A stretch of DNA of 64,000 bases from a virus (IMGVR_UViG_3300032050_010539); one strand, 5' to 3'; positions 20,269 through 50,676 are shown, counted from the stretch's first letter. Numbers and translations: made by a program. The notes: generated from the sequence alone by a model not told the origin.

Positions 20269-21129
20269 TTAGGGAGTTCTTCTGAATACGCAGACCACCC
20301 GAAAACCGCCATCGTTGCCGCAGACGTCGCGGCGGTTGCTGCTGCCGCGAATCGCGGAACGGCAGCTATCAGGATTGAAGCCCCAGGAACCGCCCCGCAG
20401 AGAAGAATGATTATCATCCTCATTTTCTATCCAAGCACTGCCATCCGTCGGCGCACCATCATAATTATCATGCCAAGTATCGGCGCACCATTTCCAGACA
20501 TTGCCATGCATATCGCACAGTCCGAAGGCATTGGGGGGAAATTGTCCCACGGGAGTCGTTTCTTCTCGATATTCTCCCTTCGGTTCTCCAGCGTAGGTAT
20601 AGCTGGCACGGTAGTTAGCCAATTCCCCCGTAATGGTTTCCCCAAAGTGAAATGGGGGGGTGGTTCCAGCACGACAAGCGTATTCCCATTCCGCTTCACT
20701 CGGTAGTCGGTATTCCCTTCCCGTCAGTTTCGATAATCTCGCACAAAATTCAACGGCATCGTACCAGTTGACTTGTTCTACGGGGCGGCGATCACTATCG
20801 GGACGGTCTTTAAAATGGGCCGGGTTGAGATTAAGGTCTTGTTTAACTTTTAAATCTGTGCGAGAGGCAACCTCTTTCCACTGAGCCTGGGTGATGGGGT
20901 ATTTACCCATGAAAAAGGTGGAGACAGTAACCTCATGTTGAGGGCGTTCATCATCGTAACTATCTTTCTCATTTGGCGATGAACCCATCAGGAAAGTTCC
21001 CCCCGGGATGGCAACCATTTCTAAGGTGATGCCATTGCCCAAATCTTCCCCGAAGGGTTGTTCTTTAAACTGTCTTCTATTCTGTTCGACGCCCTGTCTA
21101 GATATTATTGTGTGTGGTATAGCGTTCAT
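20269..21129 (-). CDS. FGE-sulfatase/C-lectin-fold protein, DGR target type
   Basis: [57 protein letters not shown]; likely start MNAIPH at 21129 with AAGGA RBS. Confidence 0.92.
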   Translation of the reverse strand: MNAIPHTIISRQGVEQNRRQFKEQPFGEDLGNGITLEMVAIPGGTFLMGSSPNEKDSYDDERPQHEVTVSTFFMGKYPITQAQWKEVASRTDLKVKQDLNLNPAHFKDRPDSDRRPVEQVNWYDAVEFCARLSKLTGREYRLPSEAEWEYACRAGTTPPFHFGETITGELANYRASYTYAGEPKGEYREETTPVGQFPPNAFGLCDMHGNVWKWCADTWHDNYDGAPTDGSAWIENEDDNHSSLRGGSWGFNPDSCRSAIRGSSNRRDVCGNDGGFRVVCVFRRTP

Positions 21130-21218
21130 TTCCTTCTCTCTGTAGTAGAACGATATATACGCCTCTCTATTAATAGAGAGGCGTATATCAGCCGACCTCC
21201 GATAAGGTCGGCTAATTA

Positions 21219-21917
21219 CTAGTCCATAGGATTGGTGCTTGCGGCAGGGGTCGTCGCCGCCCACTCTGCATCGTTATTTGCAGCAGCGACAACAGCTTGT
21301 GCAGCTTGTGTTGCTTGTAGCCGAGCAGTGCGCTCTACTTGCCGGCGCTTCTGCCGAGCATTATTCTGAGACCGCGCCTTTGAGAACCAGTTATCCATCT
21401 CATTCTTTGAATCAAAGCCTCGGCCGCTAATGGAAGTATGATTGACCTCCATGCCTACCAAGGCCATAGCGTAAAAGACAATGCTATTGACTTCCTCACC
21501 GTTTACGGTGAGTTCGGATAAGATGGGCTCCCCGACCTCGAAGAGAACGGATAAGCCCGCTCCTACCATGCCTTCAGCGCCATCAGAGATAATCTCAAAT
21601 TGGTCCGGTGTTACCCGGACTTCAACTGTCATATCAACAAGCTGGTCGTTAGCAATTGGGAAACCCTGGCGGGTAATATTGTTAGTCCGCGTGACTGTGC
21701 CTACTAGCCGGACGGTTCCGTCGGAGCATTCTTTGTTCCAAAAGCGTTCTGGAAGGAACTTAGTTGTAAACGCTATTGAGAAAAGCAGTTGCGCTTTGGA
21801 TTCCTGTGGTTTAGGTTCTGCTACCGCTGCTTTGAATGCTTCTATAGGGGATAGAGTAGTAGTGGTTTTGGCGGTGGTTCCTGCGGTGGTTTTGGCGGTG
21901 CGTTGTGTTGTTCTCAT
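21219..21917 (-). CDS. hypothetical protein (possible ssDNA-binding, low-complexity termini)
   Basis: 232-aa ORF with beta-rich core and Thr/Ala-rich ends. Confidence 0.7.
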   Translation of the reverse strand: MRTTQRTAKTTAGTTAKTTTTLSPIEAFKAAVAEPKPQESKAQLLFSIAFTTKFLPERFWNKECSDGTVRLVGTVTRTNNITRQGFPIANDQLVDMTVEVRVTPDQFEIISDGAEGMVGAGLSVLFEVGEPILSELTVNGEEVNSIVFYAMALVGMEVNHTSISGRGFDSKNEMDNWFSKARSQNNARQKRRQVERTARLQATQAAQAVVAAANNDAEWAATTPAASTNPMD

Positions 21918-21954: not shown

Positions 21955-22205
21955 TATCCCTCCGTTGGGGAGTGGTATCGACTACTTTCGCAGCTCGAGT
22001 ACCATAGGCCCTCCCCAACGGAGTGGCTAGAGCAGCTAGTGCAGCTATAGTAGTTATCACGACTAGTGCGACACAAGCCCCTCTGTTGGGGAGTGGCACT
22101 GGCTACTTTCGCAGCTCGAGTACCATAAGCTCCTCCGTTGGGGAGTGGCTAGTATAGCTATGGTAGCTATCGCGACAATAGCTCTTCTGAAAGGGAGTGG
22201 CTAAT
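21955..22205. repeat. array of five CCTCCGTTGGGGAGTGG(CTA)-like repeats separated by hairpin spacers
   Basis: GAGTGG at ~21970, 22021, 22091, 22143, 22195. Confidence 0.8.
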
Positions 22206-22421
22206 GAAACTAACGCAGCTCTTGCTGGGTGCTTAGGGAGTACGCATAACAGATAGTTTATTGCCACCGCTAATAGAGTTCGCCGTCACGGGCATAAGCC
22301 GCCGCTAGTAACATTCGCTGTCATGAGCAATATTAGATACTACCTATCATATGGAGGGAAGAGCTCCACTAAAAGAAAAAGGGGCCAGGTGGCCCCCAGG
22401 GGTCATATGACCCCATTGTAA

Positions 22422-25400
22422 TTAGAAATCAGGATGATCTTCAGCTTCAGCGAGTTCTAGTTTATAGTCGCCGAGGTCGAGATGTACAACAGTTGCGATT
22501 TCCAACAGCTGCTTAAGTTGAGGGTTCCTGACATAGTTAGAGAGTTGGAACTCACTTACCATGTCGAACACACTAACGGGGACGATATCATCAGCGCCAT
22601 AACTGGCTGCGTCATCCTGGGTCATAGGAACCACAGGATCATGGCCCTGGCCAGTACGACGGAAGGCTCCGTATATGGCAGATGACATGATAAGGCTCTC
22701 GCGAGCGAAGTTGCCCCGTTCGAGAGCACCGTATGTGAGAGTACGGGCGCGGGCCTTTATAAGCTGGTAGATTACCGCGGGCTCCTTAGCCAGCTTAGCG
22801 GGCATAAGGTCAGCCATAGCCCGAGCAGGAGGTACACCACCTCCTTGGCGATCCGTATCCAAAAGCTTAGTGGAATTGGCAGAGTAGTATAACCCGTCCT
22901 GCGACGACTTATACATAGGTACGCCAGCAGCCCAGGCGCGGGCTGCTTGCACTAAAGTAGCCATGAAGATCTTAGCCTCAGGGGTATAGCCCCCGAGACC
23001 CATGCTTTCATAGACGAAACGCCAGGCGATAACACACGCTTTAAGTGCGTCGGTATCGACGCCGCTAGCACGGTACATACTATCCCAGGTTTGGAAGGCA
23101 AGTGCAGAACAGATACCATAGCCAACACCTACGGCTACTTTATAATGCGTGTGCACCTCAGCAGCGTCGCTGACGTACTTATCGACAGCGATAGCAGTAG
23201 CTACAGGCTTATCCCACTTAGTGAGGGATTTCTTGCCTATCTTATCTTCATAGCTCATGAAGGCGAAGAACGGCAGGTCATCTGCTTCGTAGCAGTAGAA
23301 GTAGCCGCCTATGCCCATGAGACTAGCATTGATAGTGAGGGCACTCTCAGCGTCGATACCGTATTTGTGAGCATTAATGCCGCCGCACTGGTCACCATCA
23401 GCATCGCCTTCGTTAACGGCGTGCCATAGGAGAGGGTTGACTGTGTAGTGTGCGACGAAGGCATCGGTAGTAGATAACTTAACGCGGCCGCATAGGACGA
23501 AGCCCATAGGAGTCCGTTGTATCCCAATAACCTGACCTTCTTCGATGCCAAGCATACGTACCATAGGGCAATTGGGGTGCATGAGAATTACAGGCACGCC
23601 ATCAGCGCTATGGAGCAAGGGGCTATAGCTGGTCTTGACCTTACCAACGACCACATCGCCAGCGCGGGCCATACTCTTCATAATGCCTTTGGATTTAACC
23701 ATGGTGTTACACCATGTGCGTAAACCGCGGCTGACCTTAGCGGTCATGGAGTAGATTTTACTATCCAAACCGCTTTGGTCTTCAATTCCTACATCAGTAA
23801 CGTAGGCCAACAGTGTCAAGAGGTCTAGCATAATACCAGTAGCGGAGGCGCCAGAGAAGGTACCGAACGCGCTTAGGGCCTTACCATTGATATGAAGAGA
23901 GACTTCATTACCGTTATTCTGAGCAACGATATCCACTCCATCGGGGTAGACGGTAGCAAAACGATCTAGCAGATTGCGGTCACTGCCAGGGGTGCTATCA
24001 GAAACATAGTTGTTAACTACGCCGATAATGTCCCGTAGATGGTCACGCCCCTCAGTAGTGCTGATGTTAATACAAGCATCACATTCCTTAGATGTGATCA
24101 TACTAACTATGGACATGACGTTATCGTATTTAACCTCCTCCATGAGCGCTTCGCCCCAACCGCGGTTCTGTAGAGCCACAATACCTATCTGCTCCATAGT
24201 CATTTTGGAGAATGCTACGGACTCACGAGGAGTGGCTATCTCGATATCGTATGGCAGATAGCCGTATATAACCTCTACTGTTTCTTCGATACGGACGCTG
24301 GTATCGTCGATGTCGATTACCTTGATGTCATCGTTAGTTACTACGGAGGAGATGGAATCCCACAGGTCGCGGGCCATATCAAAGGAGATGACCTCTTTAA
24401 CACTGGCTCCAGTATCATCAGTAGCCAGTTTGGCTTGAGCCCACTCAGTAAAGGTATTACTCTTAGTCATAAGATCAATAACTTCACCAGTATCATCGAT
24501 GGTGAGAAGCGCACCTTCGGGAGTATAGGTGCAGCCCCCCTTCTCAATGGCGAACATCTCTATGAGCGCGGGCCATCCCTTGGTGGTCTCGTTATTTAGG
24601 ATGATATCCCAGGGTTGAGATAGTCCCTCAACGTCATAGGGAAGAGTGGTAAGCTTCTTACCTAGACCGCGGAGTTTGAGGGCTTGGTCGCGCCCCACCA
24701 TCTCGGTCTCAAGTCGAATAGTGACGCTATCAGCGCGGCCCTCGACGCCATTACGCGTGACAGTCCCGCCTATTACGCGGATGTCCTGCGCGAATGTCTC
24801 GTTCTTCACTATGCAGTACTTGCCCTGCATAATGCTAATGATAGAGTTACCAGGAGCATAAACCTGGCCCTTCGCTTTCTCTATCTTGCCTTCGATGACT
24901 TCCATGAGTTTACTCGTGGGGTCATCTAGATCAGCAGCCATAAGAGCGCGAACTGAGCTAGGAATACGGAGTACGTGAAACTCCTTAGTAATGGTCTTCG
25001 GTACGGTGTATTCGAACTCAAGGTCGCGGCGTATAGCAGCAACACCACTGCCAAAGCCAAAGCGGCTATTGGTGAATGCGGTGCGTAGATAGAGGCCACC
25101 ACCACAACTATAGTTACCATCACCTAAATCAACGCGAAGTAGACTATCACGACGATCTATAATCTCAGCACGAGTGTATTTACCCGAGCTAGGCGGACGG
25201 TTGTACACCTTAGTGGGCTTGCTAAAATCATGGATGGAGTATATCTTACTATCCTTAAGTCCGAGGAACATGGCCTTGGCACCCTTACCTACAGCGATCC
25301 ATTTTGCATTGTATTTATCAGGTGCTGCTATGACATTGGCTTTGAGCGACAATTCAAGATCGCTGGGTGCGAGGCCAACGTTCTCCACTTGCAGGAAGGG

Positions 25401-27518
25401 GAAGGCCTTATCCCAAGGCTTGAACGCTACAGGACGGGACATACAGCGATTAATCTCAAATAGAGATTGACCCTCTTTAGGCTGAGCGCCGTAGTTGATG
25501 TCCTCGCGCCACAGGTTAGTTACCTCATTGAGGATAGCACGCGCACCAGTGGCGTTATACGCTACCTTCATACAGAGCGCCACAAGGGCTACACGACCAC
25601 TGTAGTCTTTGCCTCCGACTTTAACGAGTTCATTAGCGATGCGACTCTGACGACCATCATTGACGCTACCTGTACTAAAGTTGAAAGTAGTGCTGCGGTT
25701 ATTACCTTTGATAACCACACAGGGGCCCTCAACACTAACAGTACGATGCTGCTTGACACATAGACAGCCTACAAGAGCGGCTAAATCGTCACCAGACCAC
25801 GTGGCTAACTTAGTGAGGAAGTGCTCACTATACATGCTAACTAAGCATTCGGTCTTAGTAGTATAGGTATGCTTGTCGTCTTCATAGGGAATAGACTTAG
25901 TTACACCTAAGTTAATGACCTTAGGATTCATTTTAGAATCCGTGGTGTAAACAACCCGATGGTCTAGAAGCGCAAGGAACTTCTTACACATACGGTTGTA
26001 ACCAGATACGACATAGAGAATCGGACCTTCAGGCAGAAGGTCGAAGTTATTAGCCCCAAACAAGCGGGTTAACTCTTTACGAGCTGCTGTGATGCGCGCC
26101 TCCTGCTTAGGAGACACGACTCCACCGAGAGTACTAGGGTCAGGAATTAACATCTCGATAATGCTCTTCATGGTAGTGCTAGTGTTGGTGGTATTGTTAG
26201 AGGAGCTATCACTCTCTAACCCCTTAGTAGGGGCTCCTATGTTAGAGAGCGGGTGGGTAGGAGTTACTGCTGCGGGCGCCGCACCAATAAGACCATCAAT
26301 TGCTTGAATGGTTAGCGCAACAGCATTATCGTTGTTGACACTATTGTTAAAGACAAATTCCCAGTCTAATAACGTATTAGTGTCATCATATCCAACGGCT
26401 TCAGCATATTCGCCATAGGTTTTATAATCGAGTACGCGATCATCGAGACCTACGACTTCACGACAAATCGCAGGATCTAAACTATCTACTACATCCATCC
26501 ATATATCATCAGGACCAGGTGCCCCGCTTTCTACAAACGCGGTCATGAGGTAGTGAGTGCATAAGAGGCGGGCCACTAATGCCGGGTCGTACATAAGCAG
26601 AGCTGCTTCGTATTCGTCGTTCTCGTGTTCAGTACCTTCGTAGTAAGATTTAGTGTCATGCCATTGAGCCGAGCCCGCGCCAATAGCGGCCTCAGACACC
26701 AGAGCTATATCTAGGTCTTCAGTAAGACCTAGAGCTTGGCAGTGGTGGACAAGCTCGTGAGTTATCGCGTATATATCTTCGAATGAAGGTACAGTAACGA
26801 CATTGTCACAATAAGACGCTATGTCCCCTTGTACAAAGGTCACACCGCATAGTTTGCCTACGATTCTCATGCGGCAAGCCAGTACATCACTTGGTAATTC
26901 TGGTACTACAACGCTCATACAGCGTTTAACGCGTGCTGCTTTATCAGTAGCTTTAGCAGCTTTAGTTATCGCTAAAACGGCTTTAGCGTTTTTAGTTTTG
27001 TACTTCTTGCCTACACACGTGCGGCCGTTGCCGCGGTAGTTTACGCGGCCTTGGTCGAGGGCAGCGATAATACTATCAGCAGCATTATTTACGGTAGCAA
27101 CGGCTTTAGCGCCGGTGCTAATAGAACGCGAGGGACGCGCAAATACTGCGCTGACAGCGCGCAGTATAGGTTTGGCCTTACGTTGTCGTAAGACAAGTTT
27201 GTCTACGACGTTACGGTTACGTAATACGGGTTTGCGGGCGGCTGAAGCTGCGGCAGCTGCGGCACGACGTAGCGCACGTCGTGCTGATTTTACAACGCAG
27301 GGACGTTGACTTTGAGGTAGAGAGCGGATGGGGCGGCCGGCTGACGCTATACGACGAGAGCGACGGCGTACTACGCGATTAGCGCGACGGCTCGCTATCT
27401 GCTGAGCGCGGCGACCAGGGCCTACACGTCGTGTAGTAGGAGCACCTGCGATGATAGCGACGCTGATAGAGGCTACGAGAATATTGGATTGAAAGACGAT
27501 AGAGTTGATGGTACTCAT
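22422..27518 (-). CDS. single-chain double-psi beta-barrel DNA-dependent RNA polymerase with N-terminal basic region and HExxH zincin-like domain
   Basis: catalytic-like NEGDADGDQ (23391-23405) preceded by VIGIQRTP; beta-like KLRGLGKK...WDIILNN (~24590-24680); HELVH (26745-26759). Confidence 0.78.
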   Translation of the reverse strand: MSTINSIVFQSNILVASISVAIIAGAPTTRRVGPGRRAQQIASRRANRVVRRRSRRIASAGRPIRSLPQSQRPCVVKSARRALRRAAAAAASAARKPVLRNRNVVDKLVLRQRKAKPILRAVSAVFARPSRSISTGAKAVATVNNAADSIIAALDQGRVNYRGNGRTCVGKKYKTKNAKAVLAITKAAKATDKAARVKRCMSVVVPELPSDVLACRMRIVGKLCGVTFVQGDIASYCDNVVTVPSFEDIYAITHELVHHCQALGLTEDLDIALVSEAAIGAGSAQWHDTKSYYEGTEHENDEYEAALLMYDPALVARLLCTHYLMTAFVESGAPGPDDIWMDVVDSLDPAICREVVGLDDRVLDYKTYGEYAEAVGYDDTNTLLDWEFVFNNSVNNDNAVALTIQAIDGLIGAAPAAVTPTHPLSNIGAPTKGLESDSSSNNTTNTSTTMKSIIEMLIPDPSTLGGVVSPKQEARITAARKELTRLFGANNFDLLPEGPILYVVSGYNRMCKKFLALLDHRVVYTTDSKMNPKVINLGVTKSIPYEDDKHTYTTKTECLVSMYSEHFLTKLATWSGDDLAALVGCLCVKQHRTVSVEGPCVVIKGNNRSTTFNFSTGSVNDGRQSRIANELVKVGGKDYSGRVALVALCMKVAYNATGARAILNEVTNLWREDINYGAQPKEGQSLFEINRCMSRPVAFKPWDKAFPFLQVENVGLAPSDLELSLKANVIAAPDKYNAKWIAVGKGAKAMFLGLKDSKIYSIHDFSKPTKVYNRPPSSGKYTRAEIIDRRDSLLRVDLGDGNYSCGGGLYLRTAFTNSRFGFGSGVAAIRRDLEFEYTVPKTITKEFHVLRIPSSVRALMAADLDDPTSKLMEVIEGKIEKAKGQVYAPGNSIISIMQGKYCIVKNETFAQDIRVIGGTVTRNGVEGRADSVTIRLETEMVGRDQALKLRGLGKKLTTLPYDVEGLSQPWDIILNNETTKGWPALIEMFAIEKGGCTYTPEGALLTIDDTGEVIDLMTKSNTFTEWAQAKLATDDTGASVKEVISFDMARDLWDSISSVVTNDDIKVIDIDDTSVRIEETVEVIYGYLPYDIEIATPRESVAFSKMTMEQIGIVALQNRGWGEALMEEVKYDNVMSIVSMITSKECDACINISTTEGRDHLRDIIGVVNNYVSDSTPGSDRNLLDRFATVYPDGVDIVAQNNGNEVSLHINGKALSAFGTFSGASATGIMLDLLTLLAYVTDVGIEDQSGLDSKIYSMTAKVSRGLRTWCNTMVKSKGIMKSMARAGDVVVGKVKTSYSPLLHSADGVPVILMHPNCPMVRMLGIEEGQVIGIQRTPMGFVLCGRVKLSTTDAFVAHYTVNPLLWHAVNEGDADGDQCGGINAHKYGIDAESALTINASLMGIGGYFYCYEADDLPFFAFMSYEDKIGKKSLTKWDKPVATAIAVDKYVSDAAEVHTHYKVAVGVGYGICSALAFQTWDSMYRASGVDTDALKACVIAWRFVYESMGLGGYTPEAKIFMATLVQAARAWAAGVPMYKSSQDGLYYSANSTKLLDTDRQGGGVPPARAMADLMPAKLAKEPAVIYQLIKARARTLTYGALERGNFARESLIMSSAIYGAFRRTGQGHDPVVPMTQDDAASYGADDIVPVSVFDMVSEFQLSNYVRNPQLKQLLEIATVVHLDLGDYKLELAEAEDHPDF

Positions 27519-27577
27519 GGTTAGTGGTAATATAGGGCCACTAAAGGAAAAAGGGGCCCTGCTTGGGCCCCTTTTTA

Positions 27578-28318
27578 TTAGTCAAGTAGATCGTTGATGT
27601 CGATGTCGACTGATAGGTCAGCCGGCACTTCCCAATCAGTAGCAGTATCATCAGATGCTACTACTGACTTAGCAACAGTACCTGGCTTAGATACTATTGC
27701 TGCAGTATCTCGTGCAGCCTTAGCAGCCTCCCGTTTGCGTTTGCGGGCGGCCGCTTTACTATGTAACTGTTCCGTAGTTACCACGTTAGATTTTGCCGTT
27801 CCCTCAAACCCGTCTAGTATAGACGGGTCTATTTTCGGACGGACAACTTCCCGATGAAGTTGGATTTCCGCACCTTCAAGGTGAAAGTACTGGGTTATTG
27901 TGCCCTTGTATTCCGTTTCGCGTCCAACGCGGAGGTCTTCCGCGCTGAAGCTAACTTTTACACACCCCCACGAGCTGTCCCACCCGTCTTCAAAATCTGT
28001 AGATAACTCTACAGACATTATCACGTCATCGCTGGCGTCTCCGGAGAGAAGCTTTACAAACTCGGCTGTAGATAAGCTACGGCCATCGGAGGTAGTGAGA
28101 GGTACCTCTCCGTTTTTACTGGATATCAGCCGGAACTCCAGCCAGTAGCTAGACCCATCCAGGCGGCGCTTGATAGCGCCATTGTGCACGTAAGTAACAA
28201 CGCCAGGCTTAGTGCTGGCAGAGCGACTTACGTTAAGGGTAAATACGTAGTTTTTGGAGTTGGTGGGTTGGTTAGAGGCTTGATTAGAGGCCTGGTTGTC
28301 GTTGTTGTTGTTTCTCAT
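27578..28318 (-). CDS. hypothetical protein with acidic C-terminal tail (SSB-like architecture)
   Basis: start MRNNNND follows the motif; ends VDIDINDLLD. Confidence 0.7.
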   Translation of the reverse strand: MRNNNNDNQASNQASNQPTNSKNYVFTLNVSRSASTKPGVVTYVHNGAIKRRLDGSSYWLEFRLISSKNGEVPLTTSDGRSLSTAEFVKLLSGDASDDVIMSVELSTDFEDGWDSSWGCVKVSFSAEDLRVGRETEYKGTITQYFHLEGAEIQLHREVVRPKIDPSILDGFEGTAKSNVVTTEQLHSKAAARKRKREAAKAARDTAAIVSKPGTVAKSVVASDDTATDWEVPADLSVDIDINDLLD

Positions 28319-28485
28319 TGTGTATACTTGGGTGTATAGGACTACTAAAAGAAAAGGGGCCAATTGCTGGCGTACTTAACGAACTCAGGTGCTGAACTTC
28401 ATTCCTCTTCTTTTTAAGGCGCTATCATTTAAAGACGAGGGGCCCGCCTCTATCTTGAATAAGAAGTAGAGACGGGCCCATAGTA

Positions 28486-28593
28486 TTACCCTATTAGAGT
28501 AATAATCTCCAAATCACCATCTGGTGCAACATACCAGCGATGACCATTGAGGTCTAGATGACATGCCGGCCCATTTACAGACCGACGCTGAAT
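28486..28593 (-). pseudogene. start-less paralogue of the 49-aa gene at 29439..29588
   Basis: RBS AGGAGG directly followed by IQRRSVNGPACHLDLNGHRWYVAPDGDLEIITLIG*. Confidence 0.6.
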
Positions 28594-28617
28594 TTACCTC
28601 CTAGAATAAATGTTTAA

Positions 28618-29376
28618 TTATTCAGGTAAATCTACAGCGGGAGCCCAACCTGCTTCTAACATCGACACGTAATCGATGTCGGGATGGTAGTCCCGTCCAA
28701 CATAAACTCCTTTACCCCGCTGGTAGCGGCAGAGGGGTAATGGCACGTACTTAAGAGGCCGAATGAAGGCATAGTTACCCTCATTCCAGGTAGCCACCTC
28801 CCAGTAAGTAGCCCACTCAGGAACTACCTCCGTTGTGGGTACCTCTACTTCCCACACGGTCGTGAAGGCACGACCAGGATTGAGCTTGACCAGATCCTTT
28901 TCACAGATAATTAGCTCTCTTTTATTTTTCTCGTAGAAGACCTCTATACCTACCTTCTTGGCCAGAGAAGATATTGCACTCGCTAGACGAGGCGAACAGG
29001 GTAGCTTTAGGAAATAAGAGTTGGGATTGAAGTTCCACGTGTCACGACACTCCACCTTAATCGTGTCGGGACCTACCGCCAAAATGCGGTAGTTGAAGTT
29101 ACCGATGGCCCCCTTTAAAGAAGACCACCAACCGTTTTCTATATTTATGTCCACGAAAGTAACTAGAGAGCGGCGGCTTACCCCTTCGTCCTTAAGACGA
29201 GCCTTGAGGTTTCGTATTACCGCATCGCGTGTCTCAGCGATGTCGGCTTCAGATAGAGTCGGGGGCTGGGAACCTCCCATGAAATAGTACGAGATGAACG
29301 CCCACGTCGTTGGGTGGACGTAGACGCCCGCTGCCTGTAATGCGGCGTAGATTGACGCTGCTAGGATTTTATACAT
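28618..29376 (-). CDS. hypothetical early protein
   Basis: 252 aa; motif + AGGAGG. Confidence 0.8.
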   Translation of the reverse strand: MYKILAASIYAALQAAGVYVHPTTWAFISYYFMGGSQPPTLSEADIAETRDAVIRNLKARLKDEGVSRRSLVTFVDINIENGWWSSLKGAIGNFNYRILAVGPDTIKVECRDTWNFNPNSYFLKLPCSPRLASAISSLAKKVGIEVFYEKNKRELIICEKDLVKLNPGRAFTTVWEVEVPTTEVVPEWATYWEVATWNEGNYAFIRPLKYVPLPLCRYQRGKGVYVGRDYHPDIDYVSMLEAGWAPAVDLPE

Positions 29377-29438
29377 GTGTCCTCCTGGGACTAAAATTCA
29401 CCAGAAGGAAAAAGGGGAGCTATATACTCCCCATAGTG

Positions 29439-29588
29439 TTAGTCTATTAGAGTGATGACCTCGAAGTCACCATCTGGTAGAACATACCAGCGGTGACCAT
29501 CCAGGTCTAGATGACATGCTGGCCCATCTACGGACCGGAGTTGAATCGTTTGATGATTTAATTGAAGATAAGTGTGATAAGGGGACAT
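29439..29588 (-). CDS. small early protein (49 aa, MSPYHTYLQLNHQTIQLRSVDGPACHLDLDGHRWYVLPDGDFEVITLID)
   Basis: translated by hand; motif + AGGAGG; has a paralogue. Confidence 0.7.
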   Translation of the reverse strand: MSPYHTYLQLNHQTIQLRSVDGPACHLDLDGHRWYVLPDGDFEVITLID

Positions 29589-29797
29589 GGATTTACCTCC
29601 TAGAGTAAATATTCACTAGAAAGAAAAGGGGAGTGGGCCCTCCTGAGTATTAATTGATTACATAGATGCACTTAGCGTCTATGTAATCGAGTGAGTGGAA
29701 CCACAGCCGTGACTCCACTCAGGTAGCGTAGGCATCCCATTTACTCTGAGGAGTATTCGATTAATAGACTCCTCAGTAACTAGGACTTTATACCCTA

Positions 29798-30313
29798 TTA
29801 CTTTAACCAGCTTAGATCTAGCTGGTAGTGAAAGAGCTTGTCACTCTTCTCTATTGTCTCAAACATCTCATAGAGGCACTCCTCGAGATGATCTCGGTCC
29901 ACCCGGCTAGTCAGGCCGAGCCCCTCCCAGGTAGGCTGAGGGGGTTTAATCTCCACCAAGCAGGTCTTGGCGATGCCAACAGCCAGACGAAGACTATCGG
30001 TACTATAAAGCTGGCCCAGCTTCTTATATACCGCCTCGGCATCGGTAGTAAGCTGAAGAGCCCATAATTCCCCAGTATACTGGCAGACTATTACGTCCAC
30101 CTTGTATACCCGGTCTAGGACTCCCCAATCATCAGTGGGGACGAGACGACGAAGGACACCGCCTCGGGAGTTGAGCTCTAGATGCTTATTCGCGAGCTCA
30201 TGGGCGGCGTTATACAAGTAACCCTCCCCCCATACCTCACGGGGCTTGGGACATTTAAAACCTAATTCTTCAATCACACGCAACACTACTTTCTCCATTT
30301 GTAGACCATTCAT
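29798..30313 (-). CDS. hypothetical protein, possible PD-(D/E)XK-like nuclease
   Basis: LDRVYKVDVIV...WALQLT; motif + AGGAG. Confidence 0.6.
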   Translation of the reverse strand: MNGLQMEKVVLRVIEELGFKCPKPREVWGEGYLYNAAHELANKHLELNSRGGVLRRLVPTDDWGVLDRVYKVDVIVCQYTGELWALQLTTDAEAVYKKLGQLYSTDSLRLAVGIAKTCLVEIKPPQPTWEGLGLTSRVDRDHLEECLYEMFETIEKSDKLFHYQLDLSWLK

Positions 30314-30379
30314 GATGTACTCCTAGGATTATAAACTACTAGAAGGAAAAAGGGGCCTGCCCAGGCCCCTTAACTACTA

Positions 30380-30511
30380 CTATTTGTCTACCTTACATAG
30401 TGAGGTAGGTAGAGGCCCATAACAGGCCTCATGGTATACTCCACCAATGATGGCACCGCATGTGCCAAGAATTACCGCAATAGCTGCTATGTAAGATAAT
30501 GTGTATTTCAT
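30380..30511 (-). CDS. small membrane peptide (43 aa, MKYTLSYIAAIAVILGTCGAIIGGVYHEACYGPLPTSLCKVDK)
   Basis: translated by hand; own motif and AGGAGG; paralogue adjacent. Confidence 0.75.
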   Translation of the reverse strand: MKYTLSYIAAIAVILGTCGAIIGGVYHEACYGPLPTSLCKVDK

Positions 30512-30573
30512 AATCCCTCCTAGGGTTATAGATCACTAGAAGGAAAAAGGGGCCTGGGCAGGCCCCTTAACTA

Positions 30574-30708
30574 CTACTCTTTGTCTACCTCGCACGCCGT
30601 CACGGGGTAGTTACTGTGACAAATGCCTACGTATACTCCACCAATGATGGCAGAGCATGTTAGTAAAACGGCACTGACAGCAATAACAATTGATAGTTTA
30701 GTATTCAT
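30574..30708 (-). CDS. small membrane peptide (44 aa, MNTKLSIVIAVSAVLLTCSAIIGGVYVGICHSNYPVTACEVDKE)
   Basis: translated by hand; own motif and AGGAGG. Confidence 0.75.
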   Translation of the reverse strand: MNTKLSIVIAVSAVLLTCSAIIGGVYVGICHSNYPVTACEVDKE

Positions 30709-30789
30709 AATACCCTCCTTGGGTATAAAGATCACTAAAAGAAAAGGGGCTACGAGGCCCCTTTTCTTTTATTTCATGTCCAGATACTC

Positions 30790-30927
30790 CTAACGTACAG
30801 ATGGTATGTTTTGACCGTCTCCACGGCTAGGTAATTGATTAGTTATTACCGGATTAGTTATTACCGTTATGAAGATGACGGGAATTATAACTATGGATAC
30901 TACTAATGTTAATGCTAATGATTTCAT
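30790..30927 (-). CDS. small membrane peptide (45 aa, MKSLALTLVVSIVIIPVIF...)
   Basis: translated by hand; own motif and GGGAGG. Confidence 0.65.
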   Translation of the reverse strand: MKSLALTLVVSIVIIPVIFITVITNPVITNQLPSRGDGQNIPSVR

Positions 30928-30987
30928 AATCCCTCCCGGGTTAATAGTTCAATGAAAGAAAAAGGGGCACTGTGCCCCTTCTATCAA

Positions 30988-31311
30988 CTACTTAACAAGG
31001 ATGTAGTTGATGTCGAACTGGAGTATATCCTCCTCCGTCCATCGTTCTCCTTCTGCCAACCGCCGAGGGCTGACAAATAAACATACAATATACTCGGCCC
31101 CTGGGGGCACCTGTACCCGATTCACGGGTACGGTTACTCCGAGACGGGCGGAGAGTAGCTCCGCCGTAGAGAGGTGCCCTATAGCACTTGTCCAGTCAGT
31201 AATGGAGAGGAGAGCGCGGGCCTCTTCCTCTGAAATACAAGTGCTGGTTATAACCCCACCTGGTGTGGTGGGGTACAAAGAATTGGGAAAAGAGTTCAAA
31301 ACGTAAAGCAT
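30988..31311 (-). CDS. acrIII-1: AcrIII-1 (DUF1874/STIV B116-like) cyclic-oligoadenylate ring nuclease
   Basis: LYVLNSF, SAIGHLSTA, VPVNRVQV, RRLAEG match the family's N-x-F, GH, NR and RL-x-EG motifs; 107 aa from ATG 31311 with GAGGAG RBS. Confidence 0.88.
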   Translation of the reverse strand: MLYVLNSFPNSLYPTTPGGVITSTCISEEEARALLSITDWTSAIGHLSTAELLSARLGVTVPVNRVQVPPGAEYIVCLFVSPRRLAEGERWTEEDILQFDINYILVK

Positions 31312-31492
31312 AATCTCCTCCTTAGAGATAAGGTTCACTACGAGGAAAAAGGGACCCGAGGCCCCTCCTTATCTACTCTACTTATTTAGCTCCGCTCACT
31401 CACGGTGGAGCTTCGCTATTTCCTGCTTTATCTGTTCCATCTCGCGGCGTAAAGCCACGAGATTAATAACAGGAGCGGGGAGGCGTTGTTGA

Positions 31493-33463
31493 TCAGTTAT
31501 GACTGATCACATAGACGCGCTTAGCATCCGTATACCCTTTGTAATCTTGTGGTAGAAGAGACCCTCCTACTTTAAGTACCTTGCCCCATGCGGCGAGGGC
31601 ACCATAAAGATCCCCGTTTGCTCCGAGGAGCACCCGGTTGACGAAGGCACTATAGAGATCCCCACTTTCTCCCATGATCACCCCTTCGATGAACCACATC
31701 TTAAGAATCTTCTGGGCTATCTCTTCGTAGAGAAGAATAACCGTGGGCTCTCGTTGCTCTAGCCCAAGTGCTTCGCAATTGTCGAAGCACAAATCCCCGG
31801 ACTTGTTAATCCAGGTCCAGGACTGGGCTATTATGGTTCCTATATCATCTTCAAATACGAGGAATCCAGAATTGGGCTTTTCTTGCCCATACCAAGCGCA
31901 GGCCCCCCCATCTCCGTCTGGGTGCTGACAACAGTTGGTATATTCACCGAGGAAGAGCCCTCGCGTATCCTCCCGGGGGAGGAAGTACGCCCGTATTCCA
32001 TCCCGGGTTGCACTAATCCCCGGGAGGAAGTTGGGTTGTTGTAGGGAACGTATAAAACGCCCCTCGTAGTACTCGAAATCCCGGGTAGATACGCCCCAAT
32101 TGGCGCACTCAAAAGCAAACTCTTGGTGCTTAATATTTGTGTACTTACGTACTTTACATGCCGTCACTAGTTGACGGAATGGCAGAGAGCGCTCCTCTGT
32201 ATTTAGTTTGTGCCAGACTCGGCATATTAAGCCGAGTTCAGAAACTGAGGTAGAGCGCTGGCGTAGGCGCTCCCCCTGTGCGAATAGAAACTCGCTCAAT
32301 CCCTGCCCGCCGAGGGGTAACCAGTAGGTGGCGTCATGCTCGCTGTAGCCGAGCTTGGCCATCTTACTGAGCCACTCCTCAGAGCGGCCTCCAAAAGTAA
32401 CCACCAATGGGACAATGTACTCTAGAGGATTCTCACGTAGCAATAGCTTATTAGCTGCTGTTACCTTCAAGGTAGGTATATGCCCGCCCTCCCCAAATAT
32501 AGTTTCTTCGTTTTCTTTAAAGGCCTTGAGCAGAGGGCGCTCAATAGCACAACTAAGTTCCCCGTACAATTTACGGAGGGCTAGGCGCTTGTGCCCATTA
32601 AGCCACAGGTACTGAGCTATGGCCGTGCGCCCCAAGTGGCACACCTCATTAAAGCGCTGCCAGAACGCATTAACGCGTTCGGTACGGGAACGGCGGCGTG
32701 CCCGATCCCATTGTTTCCCCTCCTCTTTCCAGATGACCCCAGCAAGGGCTCGGAGGTCTGGGCGGGACTTGTACAGAGTTCCCAGCCGTACAGCCAGAGA
32801 CTTAGGAATCTCTGTATTGTACTTCCACACGCTCGCAGCTGGGATTAGATCCCAGACGTTACCAATGCGGGTGGAAACAGGCATACGAACTAGTACACGC
32901 TTAACCCAAATGGGTAAGCGGTTATAGTTCGGGGTGCATGCTACTGCCAATACCGTACTGTGGTCTGGTTGGTAACCAGAGTTCCATACCCGCCCAGGGG
33001 CGCGGACACCCTCCCATAGAGGGAGAAAGCGCTTTACTTCCCACCAGTGTTTAACACCTAGATCTACTAGGCGTTCAGCTAACTGAGGAGTTCTTAGCTC
33101 CTCGAACCAAATTCCCTCTTTCTCGTAGGGGAGTTTAATACCTTCGTTTAAATGAAGGTATCGGATAAGGCGGAGGCGCACTTTATTTGCTTCCTTTGCC
33201 TCCTCCAAGGCTACTTCTCGGGTGATGACCCGAGAGATAATCCAGCGCTGGGAGCTAGATAGACTATTCCACTCCTCCCATTCACTCCAGGGAGTGAATG
33301 GATTGAGTTCCAGCCACTCCCGGAACTCAAGTAAAACGTTATAAAGAGAGAAGTAGTAGGGAGCGGGGTCAGCTCCCAACTCAGCTCCCAACTCCCACTC
33401 AAAGGAGTAGGCAAGCTGAATACGGCCCGCTTTGGTTTTGGCAGATTTGATAAACTTAGACAT
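31493..33463 (-). CDS. large hypothetical early protein with C-terminal PcfJ-like/GNAT-like domain
   Basis: LFLGEYTNCCQH..G.GGAC...SGFLVF...IIAQSWTW...LCFDNCE pattern. Confidence 0.65.
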   Translation of the reverse strand: MSKFIKSAKTKAGRIQLAYSFEWELGAELGADPAPYYFSLYNVLLEFREWLELNPFTPWSEWEEWNSLSSSQRWIISRVITREVALEEAKEANKVRLRLIRYLHLNEGIKLPYEKEGIWFEELRTPQLAERLVDLGVKHWWEVKRFLPLWEGVRAPGRVWNSGYQPDHSTVLAVACTPNYNRLPIWVKRVLVRMPVSTRIGNVWDLIPAASVWKYNTEIPKSLAVRLGTLYKSRPDLRALAGVIWKEEGKQWDRARRRSRTERVNAFWQRFNEVCHLGRTAIAQYLWLNGHKRLALRKLYGELSCAIERPLLKAFKENEETIFGEGGHIPTLKVTAANKLLLRENPLEYIVPLVVTFGGRSEEWLSKMAKLGYSEHDATYWLPLGGQGLSEFLFAQGERLRQRSTSVSELGLICRVWHKLNTEERSLPFRQLVTACKVRKYTNIKHQEFAFECANWGVSTRDFEYYEGRFIRSLQQPNFLPGISATRDGIRAYFLPREDTRGLFLGEYTNCCQHPDGDGGACAWYGQEKPNSGFLVFEDDIGTIIAQSWTWINKSGDLCFDNCEALGLEQREPTVILLYEEIAQKILKMWFIEGVIMGESGDLYSAFVNRVLLGANGDLYGALAAWGKVLKVGGSLLPQDYKGYTDAKRVYVISHN

Positions 33464-33614
33464 AGAATTGTCCTCCTGGGACTAAAATTCACCAGAAGGA
33501 AAAAGGGGCCCGCAGGCCCTATTATTAATGCTATACCATCATCTACTTGAAGCAAATGATATCAATACCCAAGAGGATCGAGCATCCCTATATTAGTTGG
33601 AATGGATAACCTCT

Positions 33615-39192: not shown

Positions 39193-39948
39193 TACTACTA
39201 GATAAGCTAGCGCCACTAGATAAGGTGAAGTTAGAGGAGTTGGAGCCAGAGGACATGTGCCAGCTCCTACATTTATATTACCTAGATACACCAACTGATA
39301 TAGATATCCTTAGGATTAGAATAAGTAAGAGATTACTACGTGGAGTTAACCGTACCTATCTTCAGCACCTTAAGCTACTATATGTTTACTTAGGACACTA
39401 CCTTAAGAAATCAGGAGTTATACGTTGATTTATATATCAATTACATTCTCACAGCATCAGTCCCTTGATTGGTCACATACAGTAGGAGAGGATGCCTTTG
39501 GCTGGCTACAGACAGCGGGGGAGGATAATATTATAGTAGAGAAGTTAGAACCATACGAGGCAGTACTAGCTATAGAAGATGATATAGCGGATAATATAGG
39601 ATATATATGCGCCATGCTAATAGAGTACGGCGTAGTAGAATTTAATGTTCACGTAAGTCCTACTCAATTAGCATGGTAACACTCTCAGACTACAAACTCA
39701 CATACGAGATAACATCACTACCGACTATAATATTCGCTGGGATGACCGCGGCGGATGAGCCATTTCACTTCACTCGCTTTGAGGTGCCCCCCATTAATGG
39801 TCCTATCGAGTGCCGCTTTTCACTATTCGATAAGTCAGGTAATTTAATAGAGTTATCTAATCAATATGTGCACAGTACTACGCTAGTGGCTACCTGCAAT
39901 ATAGTGCCACTGCGTATGATAGAGAAGCTAGTTAAACCAGATCCATAG
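39180..39948 (+). CDS. three coupled small hypothetical genes (39180..39428, 39425..39679, 39673..39948)
   Basis: overlapping stops and starts. Confidence 0.6.
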
Positions 39949-42900
39949 AGTAACTCTCACTCTCATCTCGATAGGCCATACTATTAGGACGATCTACTGT
40001 TAGGTCGCTCATGTAGAGGGCGTCATAGGTGTCGTATTCATCACCATTGAATATAGTTTGTACGAAGAACTCAACAGGGGAGCCCGTGTCATCTACGACC
40101 TCGGTTTCAGCATTATCCTCTCGTTCCATGCGAGCTCGATTCATACCTTCTTGAGTAGCGCGTATACCAGCACTAACAGCGTCTAGAGCCGCGGGGGCTA
40201 CACTACGCTGCATACTGACCTCTAACCCACGATGAAGTAACTTATTTACGAAGCCTGCTGATACGAGACTCAATGCCCCCGTGATGACGTTGCTAGCTAC
40301 ATTACGCAGGCCCGCGAATGGGTCAGAGTCTATTGTGGGCGCCTTACCGAGTGTCTTCTCTACGAATGGGTTGATAATATAGCGGCCTGCGAGTTGAGCT
40401 GTTGCGCCAAAGGCTATCTCCTGTGCTAGTAGCATACCGACACCAATTGTATAGTCCTCGTGTAGTTGACCTGCTAGGCGGCCCTTGAATCCCATACTCA
40501 TCAGAGTACCTGCAGCGAAACGTCCCATCTGGTTACCTGCTGGGGCGCTTACGTAGGCCATAGCGCCTAGCATATTACCCATAGTCTGCTGCATTGCCTC
40601 GGGGCGGGCTCCGCCACTACTAATCATATCTCCTGCCAGTGCCATTAGGGGGAATAGAAGTACATCCATTAGATTACCGGCAGTATTGTTAAGAATAGGT
40701 AGATCATCTGCTACGCGTAAGAGGGGGCGGTCTGGTCGCGGGCGAGGGTCTAGTGGGTCTACATCAGGGGGTGAGCCGGCCAGTAGATAGTCGCGCCGAC
40801 GAGCTGATAACTCCTTAGCTCTATCTGGGGCGACCCCCATATCCTGTAGCAGTTTTATATAGCGCGTATCGACGTCACGGCTCTCATAATCTCGTAGCTC
40901 CTCTACTAGTCTATCGGCTGTATCTACCTGCTGACCTAGTGCTGTAGCGCGAACATAAGTAACTAATCGACTAGTGGCTGTCTCATCTGTGAGAACTGTC
41001 TTCTGAATAAATTCTGCTATCTCCTTATCAGCTGGGCTAGGGGTACCGCTATTGAGTAACACACTAAAGATATCTGCTATTTCATAGCGCTTACCATCAG
41101 CGTGAGTGAAGGTATCCATAAGAGACTCGAGGGCCCGTGTTACCTGCTCAGGCTCGTTTATCTTCCCGGCTGATACAGCCTGTAACAGTGATCTAACTAG
41201 CGGACTAGCTCCTGAGCCAGTAAGGTCACCAGCGGTAGTAATCAGATCCTGACCGAGTACATCCTCTAGTTGTCCTCCGTATAGTGTGGAGCGGGTACTA
41301 TCATTAATAGCGAAGCGCAGTAGTTTACTGCCATCAGTATTAGCCCAGAGTGATGCACTCTCCCTACTACGTAGGAAGTTCATAGCTAATATACGCTTAG
41401 TATCCGTACCCATATCCTGGAAGCGCTTATCTCCTATTACATCACGAGTGAAGTTCTGGAACTCTTCTACTTCTATCTCCATCTCGGTGAGGCCATTAGT
41501 GATGCCGCCTGCTATGAGAGTATCTATCTGAGCGGCCCGCGCGGGCTCACTATTTATGTAGGTCTCTACACTCTCTGCTAGGCCTCTACCAGAGCTAATG
41601 GGGTTACCTGCCTTATCGGTTGGCATAGCCCGCTCGAAGGCGAATACAGCCGTCATACCTACTAGGTCCTGACGTAGTTGATAACTGGCTATGAGGGCGC
41701 GGCTATGAGTACCTATTTCATCTCCTCGCAGTACGCTCAATCGACGAGATAAATCTAACTGCTCAGTTTCTCCAATGGATAGCTTAGTCAGCAGATCATT
41801 AATCTTAGAGTCCTGGGCATCATTAGTAGCTGATGCCAGTAATTCTTTATGAGCCCCTATATACGCATCTAACTTGAATAGAGGAGTTATAGATGGTAGT
41901 AGTCTACTCATATCATCTACTACACGCTGGCGCTCCACATCATCGACAGCATCTACAAAGCGCTTATGGTACTGCGATAAGTTCTCTAGGAACTCAGCAC
42001 CCCCCATCTTAGGCTTAATAGCGTCCCGCAGCATTTGCTGTATCTCTTGTAGGAATGTGCCTACCTCGCCTACCTCTGTTCTACTCTGGCGGGCCAGTCT
42101 CTGTATATCCACTATCTTACTATCGGCCTCTAGGTTAACATCACTCGCGCTCATGCCTCCTGCCATACCCTGATCGATTAGTATACGACGCATGTCATCC
42201 TGTAGGGCCGAGCTATTCTCTAGTGCGTGAGACACAGCCATGATGGGGGAGCGCTCGTATAGCATACCCACGGTAGTGTTATACGTCTTACCGAGGATTA
42301 CACTACCTGCCTGGCCCAGTACCTTCTGCATCATATCGAATTGGCCGCCGCTCATGACACTACCATCAGCGCGCTTCATGTACTTGCTGAGATTATCGCG
42401 GGCATTAACAGCAGTTAGTTTATGCAGGAAGTCATAGGCCTTCTCTTCCTGATCATTACCTGTAGCGCTCAGGATATCATGTAGACTAGCCCGCACGAAT
42501 GGCCCCGTATCAGGGTTATTAACAAGATCGGTTAGTATGTTCTGATCCGTAGAGGTAGATAATCTATTGACTATATCAACTGCACTATCAGTTCTGCTCT
42601 GCTGTATTAATTCTAATAAGGGCTCATGGGCCGGCTGTATACGCGCGTATACGTCCTCCATCATACCGAAGAGACCGCGGGACTGTTCTACTAATACCAG
42701 GGCATGTTCTATACCTCGCTGTTCCAGCATACCCTTATCTAATTTCATATAGCCCGCTACCCAGCTATACACTGAGTCGGTATACTCATTCCAATTAGCA
42801 TTAGTGGCTACCTGCTGTATAGTATCCAGTAGAGCACTGGCACGCATATCTAGGTCATTAGCTTGCTTCTCTAGAATGGTGCGCTTAGCGGGATCAGCAG

Positions 42901-50548: not shown

Positions 50549-50676
50549 CAGTAGAGTACAAAACCTATTAAATAGAGCTATAGCTGAAAAACTGCCTACT
50601 TTAGCGGGCAGTGGCCTCATAGGATTATATCAATCAGCTTATCTGATATCTTATAGCACATACATGGAGAGACGTT

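Follow-up and report, generated by a model that had tools for sequence, protein, structure and literature searches.

A gene annotated as hypothetical in a Ma-LMM01-type phage of Microcystis probably encodes a single-chain two-barrel RNA polymerase of a new family

The gene and its family

The DNA analysed here (the window) is a stretch of 64,000 nucleotides (nt) from a virus (IMGVR_UViG_3300032050_010539), and its genome source is a Ma-LMM01-type (Fukuivirus) myophage of Microcystis. On the minus strand of the window lies an open reading frame (ORF) of 1698 amino acids (aa) (22422..27518; protein P0001), the ortholog of Ma-LMM01 gp064 (YP_851078, 'hypothetical protein'). Going by its predicted structure, we hold with a probability of roughly 0.85 that the gene product is an active two-barrel RNA polymerase (RNAP) of a new family; this figure excludes the choice of role. 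The family lies inside the known two-barrel superfamily and is named by no database. A preliminary description of the ORF had proposed a single-chain RNAP in which a beta-type barrel precedes a beta'-type barrel. This was borne out by the fold searches and by the conservation of motifs described below, and the strings quoted in that description were all found in the 1698-aa ORF.

P0001 gave zero matches in Pfam, NCBIfam and the PDB sequences (phmmer was used for the latter), and matched phrog_30979 (unknown function) with 3554 bits. At the DNA level the gene is 88–91% identical to its counterparts in Ma-LMM01, MaMV-DC, MaMV-DH01 and others, all of which are annotated 'hypothetical protein'; nowhere in the searchable literature was gp064 tied to transcription. 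An exhaustive HMMER search with aa 500–1698 as the query gave a family of 155 clusters at 50% identity. In a set of 50,697 phage records the carriers were only Fukuiviruses and one Microcoleus phage, and 20 loci with the polymerase family were present in IMG/VR. The plasmid collection held no match, and a relative was confirmed in none of 185,579 species genomes when these were searched with the single pattern NEGD[AS]DGD, which is of low sensitivity. The cultured members of the family so far are cyanophages only.

Predicted fold of the polymerase core

The unit common to all relatives is aa 450–1698 (22425..26171, minus strand), referred to here as the core. An AlphaFold (AF2) model covering aa 500–1698 was obtained from a 38-sequence alignment (19–35% identity), and showed a pLDDT of 87.6 and a pTM of 0.86. 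When this model was compared with the PDB by Foldseek, the matches were almost only to RNAP beta/Rpb2 chains (probability 0.95–1.0), the crAss-like virion RNAP 6vr4 being listed too. VIA-align against 48,161 chains yielded 13 matches with Z ≥ 8, each of them a two-barrel RNAP. These included RDR2 (Z 11.3, 431 aa), QDE-1 (Z 11.2, 438 aa), P74-26 gp62 (Z 11.1, 425 aa), P23-45 gp96 (Z 9.3), the phiKZ enzyme (Z 9.1), plastid and cellular beta (Z about 9) and the AR9 enzyme (Z 8.5). The core is thus modelled with high confidence, and the strong matches of the model are all two-barrel RNAPs.

A second-look alignment gave Z ≥ 8 for 376 chains. The best of these was Rpb2 7ozn_B (Z 12.2, 405 residues over model positions 74–604), and on this alignment the predicted beta/Rpb2-like half, with the first double-psi barrel, spans aa 573–1103 (24210..25802, minus strand). 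Model positions 786–905 matched isolated double-psi beta-barrel domains (Z 7–8, root-mean-square deviation about 2 Å). The beta'-type double-psi barrel, at aa 1285–1384 (23367..23666, minus strand), carries R1335-x-P1337 and D1372-x-D1374-G-D1376. In the model the beta-type barrel is first and the beta'-type barrel second, and together they would make one catalytic unit. Model positions 946–981 form a 36-residue helix with a near-invariant H1458-Y1459, followed by two further helices; this 36-residue helix, which lies after the second barrel, may be the bridge helix.

Motifs and their conservation

The beta-type motif comprises DQALKLRGLGKK (aa 943–954) and WDIILNN (aa 969–975), and the beta'-type motif comprises VIGIQRTP (aa 1330–1337) and VNPLLWHAVNEGDADGDQ (aa 1360–1377). 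The distance from K948 to D1372 is 424 aa, in agreement with the earlier estimate that the second motif lies about 400 aa after the first. Conservation was counted over all retrieved divergent relatives (19–40% identity; 111–124 sequences per position). Three lysines were invariant (K948 in 115/115, K955 in 116/116 and K980 in 117/117), and so were R1335 and P1337 (124/124 each). For the metal triad, D1372 was present in 115/115 relatives, and D1374, G1375 and D1376 in 111/111. E1093 and E1504 were likewise invariant among the 111–124 relatives. As judged from the alignment, the core motifs are far beyond chance.

The catalytic aspartates and lysines are therefore absolutely conserved in more than 110 relatives, and for this reason the polymerase is argued to be active. 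Of the tests put forward in the preliminary description, those of fold and of conservation both came out in favour of a two-barrel polymerase. In the beta/Rpb2-like half, the residues contributed by the first double-psi barrel would be K948, K955 and K980; in the beta'-like half, the second barrel would contribute R1335-x-P and, for Mg binding, D1372-x-D1374-G-D1376.

Comparison with known polymerases

A profile of the family, when compared with the PDB sequences, gave zero matches to any solved RNAP. An hhalign comparison of the same profile with YonO (L025:21359-23875) gave a probability of 0.15 (E 0.39), the single-sequence template making this a weak test. The ORF had been described as YonO-like; with no detectable sequence homology, membership of the YonO family was rejected. 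YonO, from the SPbeta prophage of Bacillus, is likewise a single-peptide two-barrel DNA-dependent RNAP with DxDGD, and transcribes late phage genes (PMC5467207). It has 839 aa and no N-terminal module, unlike the 1698-aa protein.

Closer in structure are P23-45 gp64 and P74-26 gp62, the non-virion RNAPs of their phages (PDB 8f72, 8f5m). These too are phage single polypeptides with both double-psi barrels, and are among the best whole-chain matches (Z 11.1–11.4, 390–425 aa aligned). They differ in length (about 590 aa, against 1249 aa for the core here) and their sequence similarity to it is undetectable. In addition, P23-45 gp64 is a pre-early gene without a basic/HExxH module, whereas the gene here is of the middle class and has such a module. 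The longest structural alignments were those with QDE-1 and RDR2 (up to 515 aa, Z 11.2–11.5), which likewise are single chains and have their barrels in the same order. These are eukaryotic RNA-silencing enzymes, RNA-dependent or dual-template, with no sequence similarity to the core. The beta-like half of the core can in addition be aligned with cellular Rpb2/beta over some 400 aa (Z 12.2).

The crAss phage phi14:2 offers another parallel. Its virion RNAP gp66 is a large phage single-chain two-barrel enzyme associated with a zincin-like domain, gp65 (6vr4), and the two are fused into giant polyproteins in some relatives. The match to 6vr4 (Z 7.5, 506 aa aligned) had a Z below those for QDE-1 or gp64, and there was no sequence similarity. 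The virion location of phi14:2 gp66 is proven, whereas for the protein here it is a proposal; the phage here is a cyanobacterial myovirus. The enzymes of phiKZ and AR9 are likewise phage two-barrel RNAPs, used there in a two-polymerase programme (structural matches with Z 9.1 and 8.5); they consist of four or five polypeptides, in contrast to the one fused chain here.

All phage enzymes of the superfamily that have been characterised (YonO, phi14:2 gp66, P23-45 gp64 and gp96) are DNA-dependent transcriptases (PMC5467207, PMC10770324). The core is most likely a DNA-dependent enzyme as well.

Some points weigh against the assignment. Sequence methods tie the family to no characterised RNAP, so the link to the superfamily rests on predicted structure and motifs. 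The best structural neighbours also include the RNA-dependent RDR2 and QDE-1, which makes a DNA template less certain.

The N-terminal accessory module

Judged by sequence comparison, aa 1–449 is an accessory module specific to the Ma-LMM01 (Fukuivirus) clade. It begins with an uncharged hydrophobic segment (aa 1–27; 27438..27518, minus strand) that is poorly conserved, with an omega of about 1.25 versus LMM01 and with indels. The very basic leader noted in the preliminary description was confirmed as aa 28–210 (26889..27437, minus strand). This segment is Arg/Lys-rich, with 32 Arg and 15 Lys versus 5 acidic residues (net charge +42), and probably binds nucleic acid. Within it, aa 31–130 are 92% identical to LMM01 (omega 0.18). 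Next come an acidic (net −27) domain with HELVH, a candidate minimal zincin (aa 211–400; 26319..26888, minus strand), and a linker (aa 401–449; 26172..26318, minus strand) that ends in a Ser/Thr/Asn-rich stretch before Met450 (26171-26169). The module is under purifying selection: omega is 0.18 in its Arg-rich part and 0.06 in the part with HELVH (aa 211–330), compared to 0.16 in the core.

Distant relatives start near Met450. A domain boundary at this internal methionine is therefore real, as had been suggested, although its position is residue 450 and not about 440. A metagenomic relative (L002) has two stand-alone cores without the module, one of them 92% identical to aa 452–1698. Since such a core exists without the module, the polymerase chemistry should be independent of it. 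The linker corresponds to the Thr/Asn-rich N-terminal leader of the L002 stand-alone cores; in the Fukuivirus clade the 449-aa module would thus have been inserted between the start codon and this leader. Contigs from RNA libraries span the module–core junction (26171) in the fused form only, and no deleted form was seen; the sequencing runs were read as contigs, which carry neither transcript ends nor strand. In ten other long members of the family, no Pfam domains were found in the N-terminal extensions.

The genes flanking that of the polymerase, gp065-like (27578-28318) and gp063-like (21219-21917), both on the minus strand, have Asn/Thr/Gln-rich low-complexity leaders and basic Ala-rich tails. 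Their leaders resemble the Thr/Asn-rich stretch before Met450.

The HELVH domain

HELVH occupies aa 254–258 (26745-26759) and is the sole HExxH in the protein; a motif of this type was present in 1.7% of composition-preserving shuffles. It is unchanged in 9 orthologs, the most divergent of which has 61% identity. When aa 1–470 were modelled on nine shallow orthologs, the domain did not fold (pLDDT 34.9). Pfam and NCBIfam were blank for aa 195–460 even at E 10. Language-model neighbours of the region, which are leads only and all below 0.9, include SprT-like, Peptidase_M78 and LPD23; a literature search on LPD23 gave nothing relevant.

A clearer result came from two giant proteins that carry the same core. 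Residues 229–358 of P0001 align with their HExxH regions (hhalign E 4.6e-4 and 7.3e-4), and the three have in common a strand–helix pattern, G-x-Y...V-T-V...HExxH, followed by an acidic block. The HExxH region of one of them, the giant of the Microcoleus phage, scored 17 bits for Peptidase_M78, which is sub-threshold (cutoff 22). A conserved DEYEAA / EEQ block downstream of HELVH is a candidate, only, for the third metal ligand. No stand-alone HELVH homologs were found at 135–431 aa, and the longer proteins returned were Fukuivirus-type fusions only. On balance, these sequence comparisons modestly favour a zincin-like domain. The zincin proposed earlier thus retains its motif and its alignment with the giants, but gained neither a predicted fold nor a match to a curated family.

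Between aa 211 and 330 (26529-26888), synonymous divergence (dS) from Ma-LMM01 is saturated, at 3.4 versus 0.07–0.5 in the flanks. It follows that the history of the HELVH domain differs from that of the rest of the gene (mosaic or recombination).

Giant proteins and tandem cores

The RNAP core is also found at the C-terminal end of giants of more than 3000 aa: L024:3-7412 (Microcoleus phage My-WqHQDG, a coding sequence of 3411 aa), P0118 and L023:135-9914. In the Microcoleus giant and L023 an HExxH domain lies about 1750 aa upstream of DxDGD. Two of the giants, that of the Microcoleus phage and P0118, have a NADAR domain (PF08719, E 3e-17 to 3e-20) immediately behind the DxDGD barrel.

The window has a giant of its own, P0165 (3562 aa; 39932-50620, minus strand), the ortholog of gp080. 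It contains AWIQRSPP...NLGDFDGD, and its BFVD name is PLD-domain protein. P0165 had no Pfam or PDB-sequence match, and pieces of it gave only weak fold matches to the RNAP model (probability 0.44, BFVD A0A7J4_2, and 0.12). Paralogy of P0001 with P0165 was rejected, as BLASTP between the two gave nothing significant; the giants that match P0001 (e.g. P0118) are also unrelated to P0165.

On L002, a metagenome contig of 156 kb, the unit [gp065-like gene + RNAP core] is duplicated in tandem (L002:518-9717). The first unit has 246 aa + 1268 aa and the second 219 aa + about 1267 aa, the second core having been shortened to 1238 aa (P0011) by the gene caller. The two core genes share a leader of about 160 nt, apparently identical. 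The gp065-like gene was considered as a conserved upstream partner of the core; in L002 it was duplicated together with the core, but in the distant L003 the gene at this upstream place is dissimilar, and the candidate was dropped.

Repeats and hairpins around the gene

Between 22367 and 33503 the minus strand has nine units, one for each gene, of the form GC hairpin + TTTTYCTTYTAGTG + A/T-rich hexamer + (AGGAGG) + ATG. They are positioned at 22367-22380, 27539-27552, 28343-28356, 29399-29412, 29614-29627, 30337-30350, 30534-30547, 30733-30746 and 33490-33503, and the hairpin-TTTTCCTTCTAGTG units lie about 20–26 nt before an ATG. One unit stands before the RNAP gene, another before the gp065-like gene, and a third after the RNAP stop codon. 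The first of these, a GC hairpin with TTTTTCCTTTAGTG (27539..27575, minus strand), lies some 20 nt ahead of the start codon of the RNAP. Two GC hairpins with TTTTTCTTTTAGTG (22367..22414, minus strand), which are terminator-like, immediately follow its stop codon. The motif of the units had 7 matches versus 0.46 expected and is conserved in Fukuivirus loci only. Over 22367-33503, terminator-like sites were enriched (32 vs 8.2 ± 3.5), and sigma70-like sites were at chance. By their sequence the units look like terminator-plus-restart cassettes, and they may be promoters for a phage polymerase.

A second repeat, CCACTCCCCAACGGAGG, is confined within the 64 kb to 21959-22148, where it has four copies (three on the minus strand and one inverted). 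These copies sit between the RNAP stop codon and the first early-gene ortholog, and correspond to the 42-bp repeats annotated in Ma-LMM01. Like the hairpin units, they may be promoters for the enzyme.

In three runs of one study the metatranscriptome contigs are all interrupted at the hairpin ahead of the RNAP start codon (27536-27585). Coming from one study and from contigs only, these breaks are a weak hint of a transcript boundary. Among the early-gene orthologs, that of gp062 (20269-21264, minus strand), annotated 'kinase', was found to be FGE-sulfatase / formylglycine-generating-enzyme-like (PF03781, E 2.9e-62).

Timing of expression and promoters

Ma-LMM01-type phages have been stated to have no RNA polymerase and to depend on host sigma70 in every phase (PMC5780444; PMC9927357). 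In the RNA-seq data for Ma-LMM01, gp064 belongs to the middle class B5, with log2 FPKM (fragments per kilobase per million) values of 0, 1.6, 7.5 and 8.0 at 0, 1, 3 and 6 h, the only points of a coarse time course (PMC5780444 Table S3). The early class consists of gp054–gp063, directly downstream of gp064 on the same strand, with log2 FPKM of 5.4–7.9 at 1 h; the giant gp080 is of the middle class as well, and late genes climb from log2 7–8 to 13–14 between 3 and 6 h (PMC5780444). Hence, by its Ma-LMM01 ortholog, the gene is transcribed in the middle period and not early, contrary to the earlier proposal of a non-virion RNAP made early.

By our own reading of PMC5780444 Table S3, the −35 boxes are poor in the four early promoters that BPROM predicts, and at least 14 middle promoters begin with TTG, several with TTGACA or TTGACT. 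This pattern fits transcription of the middle genes by host RNAP and of the early genes by something else. How three temporal classes arise from similar promoters was left unexplained by the authors of PMC5780444.

Possible role of the polymerase

By analogy with known systems, a role as a virion-delivered early transcriptase is slightly favoured. The tilt towards delivery comes from the crAss zincin–RNAP proteins, which are virion components, and from the giant fusions in the family. Those crAss proteins had been cited as a precedent for the fusion of zincin and RNAP, and they are packaged in the virion. The enzyme would be made mid-infection and then packaged in the virion, its linker perhaps being trimmed by its own HExxH domain, and after delivery it would transcribe the adjacent early cluster in the next cell. 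Virion delivery agrees with the class B5 expression of the ortholog and with the recurrence of a similar HExxH domain in giants of more than 3000 aa that carry the same core. It also agrees with the poor −35 boxes of the early promoters, as against the TTGACA-matching middle ones, and with the four-copy CCACTCCCCAACGGAGG repeat between the RNAP gene and the first early gene. A literature search found no virion proteomics for Fukuiviruses. The arguments on the other side are that the giant DFDGD protein (39932-50620), near the structural genes, looks a better virion candidate, that the L002 cores lack the module, and that a late-gene enzyme would fit middle expression equally well. Against the polymerase reading as a whole, sigma70-like promoters were described for all classes, and host transcription was unchanged (PMC5780444).

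Nearly as likely is a non-virion polymerase that arises in the middle period, from mRNA transcribed by the host enzyme, and takes over the late (structural) genes or the block of genes with the hairpin motif. The gp080-like giant, which beside the structural genes is a natural virion candidate, would then be injected for the early genes, and the cascade would run from an injected RNAP through host RNAP to the 1698-aa RNAP. Transcripts of gp064 reach their plateau by 3 h, ahead of the late-gene rise at 3–6 h. The giant adjoins the structural module, has the AWIQRSPP...NLGDFDGD string and gave the weak fold matches to the model, although its polymerase nature is a supposition here. phiKZ, AR9 and P23-45 all use a virion and non-virion pair (PMC7598289, PMC10770324), but the non-virion RNAPs of the known two-polymerase phages are early genes, which gp064 is not. 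The L002 stand-alone cores look like ordinary enzymes, whereas the basic and HExxH module and the giant fusions resemble delivered polyproteins. Furthermore, the hairpin motif and the CCACTCCCC repeat are both absent upstream of late genes within the window.

A bolder reading, which we regard as doubtful but worth stating, is a three-polymerase programme in which these phages would not rely on the host enzyme throughout. An injected phage RNAP would act on the early cluster, host sigma70 RNAP on the middle genes, including both phage polymerase genes, and a second phage RNAP late. The 1698-aa protein would be delivered as a self-processing polyprotein, in which a DNA-binding Arg-rich leader is followed by a zincin-like peptidase, then by a linker and finally by the RNAP.

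The preliminary description had an early-made non-virion polymerase that is freed from its leader by autoproteolysis and drives middle and late transcription. The Met450 boundary, which coincides with the start of the stand-alone relatives, and the conserved HExxH domain are in keeping with this idea. It is nevertheless improbable: the ortholog stands at log2 FPKM 1.6 at 1 h, against 5.4–7.9 for early genes, and clusters with the very middle genes that the polymerase would have to transcribe, many of which have near-consensus sigma70 promoters. Processing is not evidenced, the RNA-library contigs showing the fused form only.

Least probable of all is that the two-barrel enzyme does something other than transcription, for example as an RNA-dependent RNA polymerase or in making primers, or that it is a structural relic without catalysis. 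Low expression and the presence of RDR2 and QDE-1 among the top structural neighbours speak for such a reading, but they are outweighed by a metal triad and basic residues that are conserved without exception in more than 110 relatives, by the DNA-dependent transcription of all characterised phage superfamily members (PMC5467207, PMC10770324) and by the alignment of the beta-like half with about 400 residues of cellular beta/Rpb2.

Significance

Ma-LMM01 and its relatives serve as the reference phages for Microcystis that forms blooms and produces toxins. A polymerase in a phage of this type contradicts the published model of no RNAP and dependence on the host (PMC5780444; PMC9927357), and a phage-encoded polymerase, or possibly two, would be a direct and testable answer to the question of three temporal classes with similar promoters. 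Should the three-polymerase scheme hold, the protein would be a compact cousin of the giants of more than 3000 aa with the same zincin-like domain and core. The superfamily gains a family of considerable size (155 clusters at 50% identity) that sequence searches do not detect. In it, one core is combined with modular accessories: basic leader and zincin-like domain, NADAR domain, and fusion into giants. The new family thereby bears on the kinship of phage enzymes, eukaryotic silencing polymerases and cellular RNAPs.

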